Of a stretch of 48,983 bases of DNA, positions 40,613-48,820 are shown piece by piece. Position numbers and translations under genes: made by a program. The notes under the pieces are model-generated. The model searched no databases and had not been told where the DNA came from. It worked only from the letters and a program-made list of their open reading frames with translations. Location: UHGV virus genome UHGV-0385359; one strand, 5' to 3'. Source of the stretch: a virus. How positions within the stretch are numbered: the first letter of the stretch is position 1; every line of letters starts with the position of its first letter.

Positions 40613-43600
40613 ATGCGACTCCTTGAAGGTGAAACCATTATCCACGGCGCTAAAGGCGGCGGCGGTAAAGCGCATACGCCAGTAGAGCAACCTGACGATC
40701 TGCTGTCGGTGGCAAAACTGAAAATGCTGGTGGCACTGTCAGAAGGTGAAATTCAGGGTGACCTGACTGCCCAGCAGATTTTCCTCAATGACACACCGCT
40801 GGCAAATGACAGCGGTGAATACAATTTCAAAGGCGTGAAATGGGAGTACCGTAAAGGCACTCAGGATCAGACCTACATCGCCGGCATGCCGGAAGTGGAT
40901 AACGAGCTTGCCGTGGGCGTAACGGTCACCACCACTGCGCCGTGGACGAGGCAATTCACTAATCTGTCCCTTGATGCGATCCGCATAAAACTGAGTCTGC
41001 CCGTTCAGTATCTGTATAAAGATAATGGCGATATGGTAGGAACAGTCACGGAATACGCTATCGACTTATCAACGGACGGCGCGGCCTGGCAGACGGTCGT
41101 GAACGGCAAATTCGATGGTAAAACCACAACAGAATACCAGCGTGATCACCGCATAGACTTACCGGGCGCTGTAACCGGCTGGTCTGTCCGGGTAAGACGT
41201 ATCACGGCAGATGCCAGCGGCTCTAACTCAAAACTGGTTAATGCCTTTAAAGTCTTTTCTTTTGCAGAGGTGATAGACAGTAAACTTCGCTATCCCAATA
41301 CAGCGCTGTTATATGTTGAAGTGGACAGCAGCCAGTTTAACGGCAGCGCGCCGAAAGTCACCTGCAGGCCAAAGGGTAAGCTGATTAAGGTGCCGGATAA
41401 TTATGATCCTGCAACGCGTACCTACTCCGGGTCGTGGTCCGGCGGTTTCAAAATGGCTTATTCAAATAACCCCGCATGGGTTTTCTATGATCTGGTGCTG
41501 GATGAAATCTATGGTATGGGTACGCGCGTTGACGCATCCATGGTGGATAAGTGGGAACTGTATTCTATTGCTCAGTATTGCGATGAAAAAGTTTCAGACG
41601 GAGCAGGGGGAACAGAGCCACGGTTTACCTGTAACGTGTTCATCCAGAACCAGCAGGATGCTTATCAGGTCCTGCGCGATCTGGCCGCTGTGTTTCGCGG
41701 GATCACCTTCTGGGGTAATGAAAAAGTTTACGTTCAGGCTGATGTCCCGCAAACTGATGTTGACTGGGTTTATAACGCCTCCAGTGTCATTGATGGCCTG
41801 TTCACTTATGCTGGTGGGTCTTATAAGAACCGCTACAGCTCCTGTCTTGTTTCCTGGTCCGATCCGCAGAATCACTACAGCGATACTGTAGAAGGTGTCT
41901 ACGATTCAGAGCTTGTTGAGCGGTATGATGTGCGGCAGACAACGCTGACCGCAATTGGCTGCACGTCACAGAGCGAAGCACACCGCCGCGGGCGCTGGGT
42001 TCTGCTTTCAAACGCGAAGGATGGCACGGTGTCGTTTGGCGTAGGACTCGACGGGTACATTCCGTTGCCTGCGGAAATCATTGGTGTGGCCGACCCGTTC
42101 CGCGCCGGTAAGCAAAATGGTGGTCGCATCAGTGCGGTGAATGATCGCCAGGTAACACTTGATCGCGCAATTGACTATGCAGTAAACGATCGGCTGGTTG
42201 TTAACCTGCCAGACGGTAAAGCACAGACCCGGACAATCAGTGCCGTGAGCGCGGATAAAAAGACAGTAACAATTGCCACTGCATTCAGCCAGCCGCCTGC
42301 TGCTGGTGCTGTCTGGGCAATTGACAGCGATAACCTGGCTATCCAGTATTTCCGGGTCACATCGATCGCAGCAAATGACGACAGCAACGGTGGTTTCACC
42401 ATCACTGCCGTACAGCACGACCCCAATAAATACCGTTACATTGACGATGGTGTGCGCATTGAATCGCCGCCGGTTACGGTCACTCCGATTAATGTACTGG
42501 AAGCCCCGAAAAATATCGTGATTACCGAGAGTGATCATGTGTCTCAGGGGCTGTCTGTTGCAAGCCTGGATGTCTCATGGGGCAAAGTGGATGGCGCCAT
42601 TCGATACATGGCGCAGTGGCGTAAGGATAATGGTGACTGGATTAATGTTCCGGTCACCAGCGCACAGGGATTCTCCGTTCAGGGCATTTATACGGGCAGT
42701 TATGATGTGCGTGTGCGGGCGCTGAACGCGCAGGAAACGTCCTCTCCATGGGGTTATGCTGATACAACATACCTTTCCGGTAAAGCCGGTAAGCCAGGAA
42801 CACCGACTAACCTGATTGCATCCGATGATGTTGTCTGGAATATCGATCTGACCTGGGCCTTCCCGGACGGGGCCGGGGATACGGCGTACACTGAGTTGCA
42901 GCGTTCGACGACCGACGATCTCGCAAATCCAGAGTTGCTCACGCTGGTTCCTTATCCTGCTGCGCGCTATCAGCATGGGCCAATGCCTGCCGGTGTGCGC
43001 CAGTGGTATCGTGCGCGTCTTGTCGACCGAATCGGTAACACTGGTGACTGGACGGAATGGGTCATGGGGACATCCTCCATTGATGTCAGCGACATAGCCA
43101 ATGACATTCTTGAGGACATGAAGGAATCAGACACGTTCAAAGACCTGATCGAGAGTGCCGTGGACAGCAATGAAAAAATTGCTGGCATGGCTGATGACAT
43201 TCAACAGCAGGCCGATGAACTGGAGCGGCAGGCGACAGAGATTCAGGAGAATGCCGACGGGCTGGCGCAGGCTGCGGTGAAAATCGATGAGATGTCGGTA
43301 TCTATGGATGGCATCACCGGCGGCGTCAAGAACTCATCCATCGCCGTTATACAGAACAGCATTGCGCAGGTAACAAGCAGACGTTCACAGACAGTGACGA
43401 ATGCCGGTAACAGCGCCAGCATTGATCGTGTTGACACGACAATTGCCGATGCCAGCCAGGCCGTTGCCCGCGCCTTGACGACGCTGGATTCATCTGCCGG
43501 GGGTAATGTATCCAATGTGACAGATCTGGCCGAAACGCTGGCGGATTTTTCGCAGGCGTCGGCAACGAAGATCAACTCCCTGACTGTGACAGTTAACGGG

Positions 43601-44080
43601 CAGACTGCGGCAATTAACCAGACTGCTCAGGCCGTGGCGGACGTCAACGGAAATCTTAGTGCGATGTACAACATCAAGGTGGCCGTGGATGAGAACGGGC
43701 GACAGTATGCTGCGGGAATGGGCATTGGAGTGGAGAATACCCCGTCGGGTATGCAGTCACAGGTGTTGTTCCTTGCAGATCGGTTTGCCGTAATGACTCA
43801 GGCAGGCGGAAATGTGACATTGCCTTTTGTTATTCAGAATGGTCAGGTATTTGTCAACGACGCTTTTATTAACTATGCGTTAATCACCCTGGCAAAAATT
43901 GGTGAACTCAGATCCATTAATTATGTTGCAGGTCAGACGGGAACGATTATGAAATCAGACGGCACTCTGGAGGTGAATGGTGCAGTATCTGGACAAGGGA
44001 GGTTAAGCATTACGAATATCAGAATTGTTCAATATGACTCTCAGGGTAGGCCATTGGCAGTTATGGGGGCACCTTTATAA
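40613..44080 (+). CDS. J: central tail fibre / host-specificity protein gpJ
   Basis: 1155 aa, lambda J-like over the N-terminal two thirds. The C-terminal roughly 150 aa diverges from lambda, suggesting a receptor other than LamB (inference). Confidence 0.95.
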   Translation: MRLLEGETIIHGAKGGGGKAHTPVEQPDDLLSVAKLKMLVALSEGEIQGDLTAQQIFLNDTPLANDSGEYNFKGVKWEYRKGTQDQTYIAGMPEVDNELAVGVTVTTTAPWTRQFTNLSLDAIRIKLSLPVQYLYKDNGDMVGTVTEYAIDLSTDGAAWQTVVNGKFDGKTTTEYQRDHRIDLPGAVTGWSVRVRRITADASGSNSKLVNAFKVFSFAEVIDSKLRYPNTALLYVEVDSSQFNGSAPKVTCRPKGKLIKVPDNYDPATRTYSGSWSGGFKMAYSNNPAWVFYDLVLDEIYGMGTRVDASMVDKWELYSIAQYCDEKVSDGAGGTEPRFTCNVFIQNQQDAYQVLRDLAAVFRGITFWGNEKVYVQADVPQTDVDWVYNASSVIDGLFTYAGGSYKNRYSSCLVSWSDPQNHYSDTVEGVYDSELVERYDVRQTTLTAIGCTSQSEAHRRGRWVLLSNAKDGTVSFGVGLDGYIPLPAEIIGVADPFRAGKQNGGRISAVNDRQVTLDRAIDYAVNDRLVVNLPDGKAQTRTISAVSADKKTVTIATAFSQPPAAGAVWAIDSDNLAIQYFRVTSIAANDDSNGGFTITAVQHDPNKYRYIDDGVRIESPPVTVTPINVLEAPKNIVITESDHVSQGLSVASLDVSWGKVDGAIRYMAQWRKDNGDWINVPVTSAQGFSVQGIYTGSYDVRVRALNAQETSSPWGYADTTYLSGKAGKPGTPTNLIASDDVVWNIDLTWAFPDGAGDTAYTELQRSTTDDLANPELLTLVPYPAARYQHGPMPAGVRQWYRARLVDRIGNTGDWTEWVMGTSSIDVSDIANDILEDMKESDTFKDLIESAVDSNEKIAGMADDIQQQADELERQATEIQENADGLAQAAVKIDEMSVSMDGITGGVKNSSIAVIQNSIAQVTSRRSQTVTNAGNSASIDRVDTTIADASQAVARALTTLDSSAGGNVSNVTDLAETLADFSQASATKINSLTVTVNGQTAAINQTAQAVADVNGNLSAMYNIKVAVDENGRQYAAGMGIGVENTPSGMQSQVLFLADRFAVMTQAGGNVTLPFVIQNGQVFVNDAFINYALITLAKIGELRSINYVAGQTGTIMKSDGTLEVNGAVSGQGRLSITNIRIVQYDSQGRPLAVMGAPL

Positions 44081-45042: not shown

Positions 45043-45297
45043 TCACTCAGTAAGCCCGTGTTTATCACAGGTTGATGTGTCAGTGAACGATTCCTGCGGC
45101 ATCCACTGCCAGGCAAAATACCCGCCAGAAAGATATTCTGTCGTTTTAAGCGGTTTTCTGATCCCAAAAACAGGTATTGACACCCTGTTTTTCATTATTA
45201 CGGCCTCGTTGTAACACAACGGTGGCGTATTGCTCGCGCATCCGGCAGTTAATAATGCAGAGGATATGATTATTGCTGCTGTGTAAACCTTATTCAT
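45043..45297 (-). CDS. small lipoprotein on the opposite strand downstream of J (Cor/superinfection-exclusion-type position)
   Basis: 84 aa. Signal peptide with lipobox LLTAGC. Convergent with J-orf. Confidence 0.45.
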   Translation of the reverse strand: MNKVYTAAIIISSALLTAGCASNTPPLCYNEAVIMKNRVSIPVFGIRKPLKTTEYLSGGYFAWQWMPQESFTDTSTCDKHGLTE

Positions 45298-45376: not shown

Positions 45377-45420
45377 GATCAATATTCGTTAATTGATCGT
45401 TCAAAACGATCAATTATAAT
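45377..45420 (+). promoter_or_regulatory. promoter TTGATC-N16-TATAAT overlapped by a perfect 10-bp inverted repeat and three GATC sites
   Basis: GATC at 45377, 45395 and 45408. IR attgatcgtt (45392-45401) / aacgatcaat (45405-45414). TATAAT at 45415-45420. GGAGG RBS and the tail-fibre ATG follow. Confidence 0.5.
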
Positions 45421-45433
45421 TTCGGAGGTAGTA

Positions 45434-46786
45434 ATGCTATACAATACTGGAACCATTTCTGTTAGCGGTAATAACGCCACCGGCACAGGCACGAACTGGA
45501 CCACGCCAGCCAGCCAGATTCGCGTGGGTCAGACTATCATTGTGCTGTCTAACCCTGTCCAGATGTTCCAGATTACGACAATCAATAGCGCCACTTCCCT
45601 GACGGTTACGCCAGCTGCGTCACCGGCACTCAGTGGGCAGAAATACGGTATTCTGGTATCAGACAATCTGTCTGTTGACGGGCTGGCGCAGAGTATTTCC
45701 CAACTGATTAACGAATATGATGAGAATATCAGCGCATGGGAGACTTTTGCTTTAACGAGCGCTAACCAGACGATCAATGTCACCATAAACGGCACACCTG
45801 TTTCTATTCCTGCCCTGGGTAAACTTGTACAGAAAGGGGAGAACGGTGCAGTTCCTGTTAACCGCGGGGGCACCGGCGCAACCACTGCTGAAGACGCTCG
45901 CACAAACCTCGGTTTAGTAGACAGCAATGGATTAGTGCCTGTTACTCTGGGGGGGACGGGGAAATCTTCCGCTACTGGTGCCTCATCTTCTCTAAATTTT
46001 TATGGCAATTTCGCTTCCCACTTCAATGCATTAAGCGGTGATATGGATTCACTCGTTGGTCAGAGTAATGATTCTGGTGGTGAGACATATTCAATCGCTA
46101 TATCAACAAGCGAAAATAATGTTGCTAACTGGCCCACGAATCCTACCAATTCGGGAAAAGCATATGGTTGGGGAGCAATGATGTGCTTTACTCATGCAAG
46201 GGGGGGCGGTAGAACACAAATTTACGTTCCTGATGATGCTGCAAATTTATATTTCAGACATAGATACGGAAGTGCGTGGAAAAATTGGGTGGCGGTATGG
46301 ACTAACAGGAACACTACCGTCGACAGCAATGGATTTATTAAACGTGCATCTCCGATTGTCTCTGTATTTGGTGATGGTAGCTACGATACCAACGCAGAAT
46401 CGGAAGGGGCAATGGTGCAGCGTACAGGTACAGGCGAATACAAAATCACTGGCATTCGTGGTCTTAACTCCGATCTGGCATGGGGGGGAATAAACGGTGG
46501 GATTGAGATCCCGAAAGACATAAACGGCCAGCCTCTAATCTGGATTGACTATAAGGTGCTGGAGGATGGCGATATGGTTATCAAAACGTATCACCGGGAA
46601 CACCAGAATGCCCCGGAGTTTGCAAGGAATACGATTAAAGGTATTGCCGATGGTGAGCCGGTTGATATCCCTTCAAATACGTTTGTTTCAGTGCGTGTAG
46701 AAATGCCGGAAAGCAGTGTATGGAATCAGCGAGTGGCCGAAGCCGAAAAAGCTATGACTGAAACTCCTGGAGCATCCGCCGATTGA
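45434..46786 (+). CDS. side tail-fibre protein (constant N-terminal part + variable C-terminal part inside an invertible segment)
   Basis: 450 aa. Contains the conserved fibre motif NRGGTGATTAEDARTNLGL. A crossover site lies at this motif. Confidence 0.8.
   Translation: MLYNTGTISVSGNNATGTGTNWTTPASQIRVGQTIIVLSNPVQMFQITTINSATSLTVTPAASPALSGQKYGILVSDNLSVDGLAQSISQLINEYDENISAWETFALTSANQTINVTINGTPVSIPALGKLVQKGENGAVPVNRGGTGATTAEDARTNLGLVDSNGLVPVTLGGTGKSSATGASSSLNFYGNFASHFNALSGDMDSLVGQSNDSGGETYSIAISTSENNVANWPTNPTNSGKAYGWGAMMCFTHARGGGRTQIYVPDDAANLYFRHRYGSAWKNWVAVWTNRNTTVDSNGFIKRASPIVSVFGDGSYDTNAESEGAMVQRTGTGEYKITGIRGLNSDLAWGGINGGIEIPKDINGQPLIWIDYKVLEDGDMVIKTYHREHQNAPEFARNTIKGIADGEPVDIPSNTFVSVRVEMPESSVWNQRVAEAEKAMTETPGASAD
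45897..45922. repeat. hix/gix/cix-like invertase crossover site (left), inside the tail-fibre ORF
   Basis: cgcacAAACCTCGGTTTAGtagac resembles the Hin/Gin crossover consensus (TTATCCAAAACCTCGGTTTACAGGAA). Inverted relative to the site at 47560-47583. Confidence 0.55.
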
Positions 46787-46843
46787 ATATAGAATCGGCA
46801 GACTTTTCGACAGAAACGGACACAACCCAGGTTGTGTGAATAC

Positions 46844-47593
46844 CTACTTTTCTGTGGTAGATATTTCGTCAACTTTCAACTTCAACCCCTTCACGGCAGC
46901 GAGAAGATAACCAATCAGCCCCATATAGTCGGCAACGAGATAATCAGATCCTTCGTCACGAATCACCAGATCGGGAATTACTAAATCTAGATCTTGCGCT
47001 AATGCCCCGGCTGTAAGACGTTTAGATTCCGCATCCTTATAGCGGAACGTGTAACCATCAAGCGCGGCGATCTTATCCAGAGCCTCTGTGGGGTCGATGA
47101 TGTTTACTTCCTCTTTTGCGTTCCAGTCTGACGTCAGAGTAACTCCGTTGGCCTGAACCGCTCCTTTCGCGTTAATTGTTCCATTTCGTGTATTGATATA
47201 CACGGCAGGTTTTCCTTCCTGTACACCATTGGTTGGTGATGTGTACGCGGTGCAGAATCCAATCCCGTACCACGAATAAAGGTTGATGTTAGCCGCATTG
47301 TCAAAGTTGGCTGAGTCTACGCCCGCATAAATACCACGTATACCCGGGCCGGAAGGTGCCGTCGCTGATGCCGTACCTGGGATAGTAATTGAACCAGAGG
47401 AGAGGGCTACAGGGCAGTTAAAAAGAGCACGCTGCGCCGCAGAGTTAAAGACATGTTCTTTGCCGGAGCCAGCATTGTAACGCATGCTCCCTGTAGCTGA
47501 CTGTACTGTCATATCCCCGGTCGTTGCGGAAATCCCGGCAACCATCACCGTGTCCGATGTTCCTAAACCGACGTTTTTTATAATGTATTTTGT
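46844..47593 (-). CDS. alternative tail-fibre C-terminal segment (start-less, inverted orientation) with a C-terminal intramolecular-chaperone (peptidase S74-like) region
   Basis: The frame is open from 47593 with no RBS or start. C-terminus DPTEALDKIAALDGYTFRYKD…LAQDLDLVIPDLV…YMGLIGYLLAAVKGL is typical of autoproteolytic fibre chaperone domains. The reading frame runs across the right crossover site. Confidence 0.65.
   Translation of the reverse strand, partial: TKYIIKNVGLGTSDTVMVAGISATTGDMTVQSATGSMRYNAGSGKEHVFNSAAQRALFNCPVALSSGSITIPGTASATAPSGPGIRGIYAGVDSANFDNAANINLYSWYGIGFCTAYTSPTNGVQEGKPAVYINTRNGTINAKGAVQANGVTLTSDWNAKEEVNIIDPTEALDKIAALDGYTFRYKDAESKRLTAGALAQDLDLVIPDLVIRDEGSDYLVADYMGLIGYLLAAVKGLKLKVDEISTTEK
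47560..47583. repeat. hix/gix/cix-like crossover site (right), adjacent to the invertase gene
   Basis: TTCCTAAACCGACGTTTTTTATAA versus the gix consensus TTCCTGTAAACCGAGGTTTTGGATAA. Its revcomp matches the left site at 14 of 16 core positions. Confidence 0.6.
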
Positions 47594-47648
47594 CTATGCA
47601 TCCGATAACTTCACCTGATTTTTTTGACTAAAAAGGTGATTAAAAACT

Positions 47649-48203
47649 ATGCAAATAGGCTATGTCAGGGTGTCAACAAATGACCAAAACACGGATCTCC
47701 AGCGACAGGCCCTGGAACGAGCAGGATGTGAACAGATTTTTGAGGAAAAAATGAGCGGAACGGTTGCAAACAGACCGGCACTAAAACGGCTGCTGCGTGT
47801 CCTGAAAGAGGGAGATACGCTCGTTGTTTGGAAACTGGATCGGTTGGGGCGCAGTATGAGAAATCTTGTGTTGCTGGTTGATGAATTGCGTCAACGAGGA
47901 GTGCATTTTCGAAGCCTGACAGACAGCATCGATACATCAAGCCCGATGGGACGCTTTATTTTCCATATTATGTCAGCGCTGGCAGAAATGGAGCGTGAAT
48001 TAATTGTCGAACGAACCAGGGCAGGTTTAGCCGCTGCACGAGAGAAAGGGAGAATAGGAGGACGTAGGCCAAAGTTAACGGCAGAACAGTGGGCGCAGGC
48101 TGGCAGACTGATAGCTAACGGCGTAGACAGAAAGCAGGTCGCGATAATTTATGATGTGGCTGTATGCACGCTCTATAAAAAATTTCCAGCAGGAGAGCGG
48201 TAA
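47649..48203 (+). CDS. pin: serine-recombinase DNA invertase (Pin/Gin/Hin/Cin family)
   Basis: MQIGYVRVSTNDQNTDLQ (catalytic Ser10 region) and a C-terminal HTH. 184 aa. Confidence 0.9.
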   Translation: MQIGYVRVSTNDQNTDLQRQALERAGCEQIFEEKMSGTVANRPALKRLLRVLKEGDTLVVWKLDRLGRSMRNLVLLVDELRQRGVHFRSLTDSIDTSSPMGRFIFHIMSALAEMERELIVERTRAGLAAAREKGRIGGRRPKLTAEQWAQAGRLIANGVDRKQVAIIYDVAVCTLYKKFPAGER

Positions 48204-48344: not shown

Positions 48345-48581
48345 TTAATGCCACGTCTTTTTACTCAGGCTGGTGATAGCTGAAATGGCATGTGCTGAAT
48401 CATCAAAAAGCCGGGTCAGTACAGGAACCCACTGCCTGTTTTTGTACTCAAGCACCAGATGTCCAGGCAGGTCTTTGCTGACGATGGCAAATGTCCTGAG
48501 TTCAGGCGTTGGAACAGGGAGATCGGTGCCAGGCGGGAAATATATTCTTACCCCGGCAATAATCATGTTGTCCATGCTCAT
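48345..48581 (-). CDS. hypothetical protein translationally coupled (TGATG) to the dinI-like gene
   Basis: 78 aa from the Met overlapping the DinI stop. Confidence 0.4.
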   Translation of the reverse strand: MSMDNMIIAGVRIYFPPGTDLPVPTPELRTFAIVSKDLPGHLVLEYKNRQWVPVLTRLFDDSAHAISAITSLSKKTWH

Positions 48582-48820
48582 CATTCGTTCACCAGCCACA
48601 TATCGGCTTCTTCAAACATCTCTTCCAGCATTCTGTTTAGCCGCTCTTTTTCGGTCTTTGTGCAGTCGCTGTTTAATGCGTTAGCCTGCATTGGCTTAAC
48701 TCTCACGTCGGCGTCGGGGAAGATCCGGTGTACGCGCTTTGTCAGCTCGTTAAGAATGATGTTTCTTGCGCCCGGTAGCCCCTCTACATTGCGTTTGTCG
48801 TAAACGAGTTCCACAAACAT
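48581..48820 (-). CDS. dinI: DinI / MsgA-family protein (DNA-damage-inducible protein I homologue)
   Basis: 79 aa. MFVELVYDKRN..GLPGA…L..EL.KR…FPDADVRVKPM…EMFEEA..WLV.E matches the MsgA/DinI family. Confidence 0.8.
   Translation of the reverse strand: MFVELVYDKRNVEGLPGARNIILNELTKRVHRIFPDADVRVKPMQANALNSDCTKTEKERLNRMLEEMFEEADMWLVNE

Follow-up and report, generated by a model that had tools for sequence, protein, structure and literature searches.

A Gin/Pin-type invertible tail-fibre segment with two alternative cassettes in a Citrobacter koseri prophage

Does a tail-fibre gene that adjoins a putative DNA invertase encode one fibre or two? We investigated this question in the virus genome UHGV-0385359, a stretch of 48,983 bp that is referred to here as the window. 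An earlier note, based on the sequence alone, had proposed that a serine invertase and two inverted gix-like crossover sites, one of them inside the fibre gene, form an invertible segment giving alternative C-terminal fibre domains. The invertase and both sites are all present where the note placed them, and we consider it very likely that the locus is a working two-cassette Gin-type DNA-inversion switch at the right end of a C. koseri lambda-like prophage. Its parts, with lengths in amino acids (aa) where an open reading frame (ORF) is concerned, are as follows.

45434-46786, plus strand: fibre ORF, 450 aa
45434-45916, plus strand: constant part of the fibre, aa 1-161, ending ...GGTGATTAEDARTNLGL
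45897-45922, plus strand: left 26-bp crossover site, inside the fibre ORF, CTCGCACAAACC-TC-GGTTTAGTAGAC; arm 45904-45917, central dinucleotide 45909-45910
45917-46786, plus strand: cassette 1, fused now, aa 162-450 and the stop codon, with a knob-type C-terminus
46844-47563, minus strand: cassette 2, silent now, residues 162-400 after inversion
47558-47583, minus strand: right 26-bp crossover site, plus-strand sequence TGTTCCTAAACC-GA-CGTTTTTTATAA; arm 47563-47576, central dinucleotide 47570-47571
47649-48203, plus strand: Gin/Pin-family serine DNA invertase, 184 aa, with Resolvase (PF00239, 171.6 bits) and C-terminal HTH_7 (PF02796, 48.5 bits) domains

Serine invertases need matching central dinucleotides to religate after a 180-degree rotation. 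Read as its reverse complement, the right site is TTATAAAAAACG-TC-GGTTTAGGAACA, and alignment with Mu gixL (TTATCCAAAACC-TC-GGTTTACAGGAA, a 12+2+12 layout) revealed that the central dinucleotide TC (GA on the other strand) is identical in all three sites. The two sites of the window lie in inverted orientation: reverse complementing the right one brings its TC into the same sense as that of the left. Their arms form a 14-nt inverted repeat, complementary at 13/14 positions, whose length is unremarkable (rank 9 of 54 inverted pairs in 3 kb). The repeat is specific not because of its length but because the 13-mer core of Mu gix, AAACCTCGGTTTA, has exactly 2 matches with at most 1 mismatch in 48,983 bp, both at the sites and on opposite strands (0.03 expected; two matches in 0/100 shuffles). 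The outer half of the right site, TTATAAAAAACG, agrees with the Mu gix outer half TTATCCAAAACC at 9/12 positions. Relative to the gix core, the right site has one substitution, CG for GG, a variant that is the family consensus at the invertase-proximal site. The peptide encoded by the left site is A-R-T-N-L-G-L-V-D; the same peptide motif, the NLGL of Mu S, lies under Mu gixL.

The right site is 65 bp from the invertase gene, whose product matched the Gin crystal structures 3uj3 and 4m6f at E=1e-88, with residues 1-181 aligned and roughly three-quarters of these 181 residues identical to Gin. The nucleophile Ser9 aligned to Gin position 9, and the basic helix B residues K46, R47, and R50 occupied the positions of Gin K46, R47, and K50. 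Basic residues of this kind in helix B (Hin K47, K/R48, K/R51) are specific to DNA invertases (PMC3798978). The ORF is intact and is identical across many assemblies. DNA searches of phage and Escherichia coli collections yielded no more than gin-like genes at ~74% identity and, in phage Eeyore, the constant region, neither of which bears on the orientation.

We then asked what inversion would do to the fibre. On the minus strand, the frame runs uninterrupted from 47593 until its stop codon at 46844-46846, and inversion in silico between the central dinucleotides joined codon 161 to cassette 2 in frame, yielding a 400-aa product that reads ...ARTNLGL-GTSDTVMVAG.... across the junction. The earlier note had described this frame as having no start codon and the constant part as 160 aa long. 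There is indeed no start codon upstream of the site, but an in-frame GTG and ATG lie 5-6 codons inside the cassette, which is why annotation pipelines call the silent cassette as a separate gene of 213-256 aa, and the constant part comprises 161 aa rather than 160.

The two cassettes differ in their domains. Cassette 1 carries PF25670 (Phage_tail_C_2) at 46310-46711 (200 bits) and no S74 domain in the domain search, whereas cassette 2 carries Peptidase_S74 (PF13884) at 46964-47131 (45.3 bits versus a cutoff of 22). Within the latter, the S-D-x-x-x-K motif occurs as TSDWNAK (residues 305-311 of the fusion; Ser306 codon at 47129-47131), which aligns with SDRRIK of PDB 6f45, the SDxxxK motif being conserved. 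Autocleavage at approximately Ser306, as predicted from what is known of the family, would free a 95-aa C-terminal piece. The proposal that the two orientations differ in how the fibre folds thus stands as far as the domain contrast is concerned, and a difference in folding itself would be a plausible consequence. NCBIfam gave no match for either fibre isoform. A candidate S74-like S-D-x-x-x-K dyad at the start of the knob domain (46310-46340; TVDSNGFIKRASP, TKASDGTLKAASP in most knob cassettes) was rejected, as its Ser is Val in the phage SU10 homologue; the S-D-x-x-x-K regular expression had matched there as SNGFIK and SDGTLK.

The convergent stop codons of the cassettes are 57 bp apart, which leaves no room for a tfa gene between them, and a tblastn search with Mu U/U' against the whole window found nothing (best E=0.35). 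This agrees with the earlier claim that U/U'-type genes are missing, as does the wider comparison described below: cassettes make up 96-102% of the DNA between sites in 11 locus states, which represent 10 different loci (one state being the window's own locus flipped), with 96% in the window.

Evidence for inversion in nature came from other C. koseri genomes. In GCA_016074985.1 (L067), the order is invertase, an orphan 283-aa knob ORF, and a 400-aa S74 fibre, that is, the flipped allele. BLAST of the window against L067 gave three pieces, with 45904-47576 inverted at 99.2% and both flanks colinear, while the window flipped in silico gave a single 4297-nt match at 98.8%. The natural 400-aa fibre of L067 is identical to our predicted fusion at 397/400 residues, bearing out the idea that inversion would fuse the minus-strand frame to the constant part. 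The half-sites have been exchanged exactly, and because a C/G difference just 5' of TC remains with the outer halves, the exchange can be placed within the TCGGTTTAG core. L067 was reached via short members of the knob-protein cluster; its natural 400-aa protein was missing from the first fusion-protein search and is probably in a 90% cluster represented by the 256-aa P0034. The earlier note had named a single orientation, together with sites lacking the conserved central dinucleotide, as what would argue against a switch; L067 is flipped relative to the window, and TC/GA is shared.

Further evidence lies in how assemblies break. Two contigs begin exactly at 47563 (L006, an 831-kb contig, and L007) and two end exactly at 45917 (L019 and L021); up to 45917 and again from 47563, the two orientations have the same bases. 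A 1645-bp contig (L070) corresponds to window positions 45918-47562 at 99.8%, and partial knob proteins are encoded on four further C. koseri contigs, each 1632-1663 bp long. In total, at least 6 independent assemblies either break exactly where the arms end or contain the segment as a contig by itself. Since a 14-nt repeat alone cannot break a k-mer assembly but two alternative neighbours can, these breaks imply that both orientations were mixed within one read set.

From these data we propose the following mechanism. The invertase would bind the two 26-bp gix-like sites, cut at the shared central TC/GA, and invert the 1.66 kb between them, while the promoter of the fibre gene, its start codon, and codons 1-161 would stay in place. 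Because the crossover falls in the codons of the conserved NLGL motif, either cassette would be joined in frame. The orientation of the window would give a 450-aa fibre with a knob-type (Phage_tail_C_2) tip, which may fold without a chaperone. The other orientation would give a 400-aa fibre in which the tip is followed by a Peptidase_S74 chaperone, predicted to trimerise the fibre and to cut itself at about Ser306. Neither cassette is accompanied by a tail-fibre assembly gene of its own. Two particle types would be expected in the lysate of a lysogen culture, and they presumably differ in receptor specificity and may differ in host range.

A precedent for such a switch has been shown experimentally. 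The lambda-like prophage FRphi of Enterobacter sp. BIDMC93 carries a gin-driven tail-fibre shufflon (Walker, Richard et al., Nat Microbiol 2026, PMC13418256; bioRxiv 10.1101/2025.07.22.666180), in which long-read sequencing resolved three C-terminal isoforms, deletion of gin locked the isoforms, and the test host, infected by way of FhuA, was susceptible to only one isoform. In related loci, one of them from Citrobacter amalonaticus, the number of paralogues reaches six, and the same authors noted that such loci disturb genome assembly and that heterogeneity is visible in reads and public data (PMC13418256). The novelty implied by the earlier note was therefore overstated. Compared by layout only, the locus of the window resembles FRphi in lying in an Enterobacteriaceae lambda-like prophage and in having one fibre gene, a constant N-terminus, alternative C-termini, and gin downstream, and the three-cassette Enterobacter loci of our survey share this layout and have an invertase nearly identical to that of the window. 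Unlike the window, FRphi has three cassettes rather than two, and its host species is different. Eight accessions from the invertase clusters were absent from the accession table of the FRphi paper, the site sequences had no match in its supplement, and chaperones are not discussed in it (PMC13418256).

Four observations weigh against a working two-fibre switch in C. koseri. First, all other long C. koseri contigs on which this same cassette pair is intact (L001-L005, L022, L025, and L066) are in the orientation of the window. This excess may reflect slow inversion or a biased population, and it would also be expected if lysogens were founded by particles whose fibre fits C. koseri. Second, an exact search for the flipped junction found it in neither IMG/VR nor JGI metagenome contigs, a result that is uninformative because a control pattern for the locus occurred in one contig (in the window's orientation) in IMG/VR and in none of the JGI contigs, so that the locus is almost absent from these collections.

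Third, a recombinational enhancer, on which, together with Fis, inversion would be expected to depend, is only suggested. The gin enhancer is located within the gene (Kahmann 1985, as cited in PMC3798978), and the search that the earlier note had proposed yielded the following candidate.

47649-47760, plus strand: candidate recombinational enhancer, the first ~110 nt of the invertase gene

This interval has Fis-like G-N13-C motifs at 47670-47684, 47719-47733, and 47742-47756 (centres at nt 29, 78, and 101 of the gene), which are degenerate but whose positions are kept in Mu gin. Among 10 invertase genes, including Mu gin (L028 4593-4700), synonymous diversity was 0.18-0.34 in nt 1-108 versus 0.5-0.63 further 3'. 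The 5' ends of genes are often constrained for reasons other than an enhancer, and the motifs and the low diversity are only suggestive of an enhancer within the 5' part of the gene.

Fourth, the receptor-binding role of the knob tip is putative. Among PDB entries, only phage SU10 gp12 was similar in sequence to the knob domain (cassette 1 versus gp12 residues 481-785, E=1e-60), and the homologous C-terminal part of gp12 is not visible in the structure. This protein forms the proximal part of the long tail fibre and is joined at its C-terminal end to its distal partner, gp13. An AlphaFold2 (AF2) model of cassette 1, with a predicted local distance difference test (pLDDT) score of 82, gave only weak fold matches, the best being to the R2 pyocin fibre (E~7e-3, template modelling [TM] score 0.25), and the search with this model found no convincing solved fold and no match to a receptor-binding domain. 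Both results would fit a switch whose two states are a self-sufficient S74-type tip and a knob-type end on which another protein docks, rather than two receptor-binding tips. We regard this as unlikely: the neighbourhood of the locus holds no candidate gene for a distal fibre, enterobacterial prophages commonly have a knob-ended protein of 410-480 aa as what seems to be their terminal fibre (one such protein occurs on 435 Salmonella contigs), and each FRphi isoform was treated as a complete fibre (PMC13418256).

The inversion could also be real but serve mainly the lysogen, for example through a fibre-derived protein that blocks the adsorption of other phages. Such an effect is described for Pin-type inversions (PinQ, PinR) in E. 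coli cryptic prophages, which are reported to inhibit T2 adsorption (PMC12529663; bioRxiv 10.1101/2025.03.28.646004), and genes of benefit to a lysogen are neighbours of the switch in the window (Cor-like, 45043-45297; DinI, 48581-48820). However, the window looks like a complete prophage rather than a cryptic remnant, both cassettes are intact fibre C-termini with homologues that exist as complete stand-alone fibres, and in FRphi it is the isoform that decides infectivity (PMC13418256), all of which makes a main role in the lysogen distinctly improbable. Least probable is that the switch is a relic, its useful inversion rate lost and its orientations recording rare past events: the strong excess of one orientation among assembled contigs and the CG instead of GG in the right site would fit this, but the invertase ORF is uninterrupted and does not vary among many assemblies, the broken or segment-isolating assemblies require both junctions in one read set, CG is the family consensus at that position, and the excess has the other possible source, in the founding particles, given above. 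We therefore retain the two-fibre switch as the preferred explanation.

The Enterobacter ludwigii loci L008-L013, which share an identical fused fibre, have three sites and three cassettes. Their second and third sites enclose a block of 1602 bp; its copy in L009 is the exact (100%) reverse complement of that in L008, compared with only 91-94% identity in the flanks. The block therefore occurs in both orientations, and by this sequence comparison the sister loci invert. A family scan, limited to one genome per species, identified 36 loci with a related constant region (55-83% identical to that of the window) in other Enterobacteriaceae. At least 12 of the 36, from Enterobacter, Pseudocitrobacter, Buttiauxella, and Citrobacter, encode an invertase with 92-96% identity (tblastn) to that of the window, and 11 of these have 2-4 sites; the outer-half consensus ATCTATAAAACG-TC-GGTTTAGG adjoins the invertase in about 11 loci of other species. 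Similarity to Mu U/U' was found in none of the 36 related loci. Across 15 locus states we counted 31 cassette copies, 13 of S74 type and 18 of knob type.

Invertase-free relatives (L034, L045, L048, and L049 [~7471]) keep AAACC-TC-GGTTTAGG inside the fibre gene. The gix-like core persists there because it encodes NLGL, and such cores are potentially ready-made crossover sites. As ...ARxNLGL is a widespread fibre motif, a near-perfect gix core would already be present in many fibre genes. We tentatively suggest that self-contained cassettes, of an autocleaving S74 type or of a knob type without a recognisable chaperone, together with a gix core that is coded within NLGL, let the gin module recruit and exchange fibre tips very freely. 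If true, this free recruitment would explain the 31 cassette copies in 15 locus states.

Several individual loci have other arrangements. A C. koseri prophage in Logan DRR174611 (L018, 6355-7597) has the same upstream genes but a single 383-aa S74 fibre and neither an invertase nor a second cassette; because its DNA 3' of the fibre stop codon matches the window's DNA 3' of the invertase stop codon, the whole switch behaves as a replaceable module. C. koseri GCA_051452685.1 (L068) has a knob/knob pair, 427 aa fused and 300 aa orphan, next to Pyocin_S and colicin-immunity genes. In C. koseri GCA_030056185.1 (L069), the knob cassette of the window is an orphan beside a different knob cassette and two small ORFs, and the fibre gene is apparently split into 86-aa and 326-aa parts. 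In Enterobacter sp. ENT03 (L059/L060, 7991-8401), a serine recombinase 38% identical to that of the window lies ~0.5 kb after the constant-region site, which may be a different arrangement of the switch.

How does the locus compare with known inversion systems? As in the Mu G segment with Gin (and P1 C with Cin, e14 P with Pin, and p15B with Min), a small serine invertase adjoins the right-hand site; the inverted sites are 26-bp imperfect dyads with a central TC/GA, the left one within the fibre gene over N-L-G-L as in Mu S; and two convergent promoterless cassettes share one constant N-terminal part. Unlike the window, Mu has S-U and S'-U' pairs, with U annotated as a tail-fibre assembly chaperone, while here the cassettes are single ORFs and no U-like gene occurs in the window. 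The Mu segment is also longer (~3 kb versus 1.66 kb), and the cassettes here are of S74 and knob type. The locus is thus a Gin/Pin-type invertible tail-fibre segment in mechanism and enzyme, without the U/U' assembly genes that are one of the defining features of Mu G. R64-type shufflons, for which the FRphi paper cites Komano 1999, likewise combine a constant N-terminus with alternative C-terminal adhesin segments by site-specific inversion and exist in multi-cassette versions. In R64, however, the tyrosine recombinase Rci acts on the pilus adhesin PilV, so that the recombinase class, the sites, which are unrelated, and the target, a conjugative pilus adhesin, all differ from those described here. 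Cassette 2 resembles endosialidase-type S74 fibres and tailspikes in ending with a PF13884 domain with S-D-x-x-x-K, and differs from them in that the S74 domain is on a silent invertible cassette and its cleavage is predicted.

Sequence features around the cassettes suggest how the fibre gene might be expressed.

45393-45420, plus strand: promoter-like site TTGATC-16-TATAAT, found by promoter scan as a consensus match
45390-45401 / 45405-45416: perfect 12+12 palindrome, TAATTGATCGTT caa AACGATCAATTA, 100% complementary
46820-46837: G+C-rich hairpin ACACAACC-CAGG-GTTGTGT in the 57-bp gap between the cassettes, a terminator-like match on the minus strand

The promoter-like site probably drives whichever cassette is fused, and the palindrome, which overlaps it just 5' of the fibre start, looks like an operator on the fibre promoter. 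The hairpin is a possible two-way terminator that could serve either orientation. The first ~97 aa of the fibre are similar to the N-terminal part of phage depolymerase tailspikes (PDB 7lzj/7vyv residues 3-99, E~1e-13).

Judging from the names on identical and near-identical proteins, the element is a C. koseri prophage. The whole window is apparently a complete lambda-like prophage, with the switch at its right end. An integrase-sized ORF at the left end is followed by terminase-, portal-, tape-measure-, and J-sized genes, identified by size and, for J only, by a family check. Downstream of J the order is a 319-aa gene, the minus-strand Cor-like gene, the fibre gene, and the 184-aa serine recombinase.

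40613-44080: J gene
48581-48820, minus strand: DinI homologue, at the right end of the prophage

The Cor-like gene (84 aa, minus strand) matched the PHROG family "Cor superinfection exclusion protein" at E=4e-12. In T1, phi80, and N15-type phages, the target blocked by Cor proteins is FhuA. Given this gene and the entry of the related phage FRphi via FhuA (PMC13418256), the C. koseri phage may use FhuA too. At 48345-48599, an 84-aa minus-strand ORF without a family match overlaps the start of the DinI homologue. The stretch 3' of the invertase differs among strains, with a SocA_Panacea-domain gene in L002 and a DUF4236 gene in L004.

Gin-type tail-fibre switches are already known from Mu G, P1 C, e14 P, and the FRphi shufflon, to which this locus adds a two-cassette case in C. 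koseri. The point of some interest is the combination of self-sufficient cassettes, S74 or knob and without tfa, with a crossover in a near-universal fibre motif. For annotation, the silent cassette is currently called as an independent "tail fiber domain-containing protein," and assemblies either end at the sites or present a single orientation chosen arbitrarily; both problems would be put right if the 26-bp sites were recognised. Cassettes that bring their own folding aid, or need none, would be handy parts for host-range engineering, as there is no matching chaperone gene to move. For C. koseri, the switch gives the prophage two alternative fibres and so bears on its host range and on which strains it can lysogenise.

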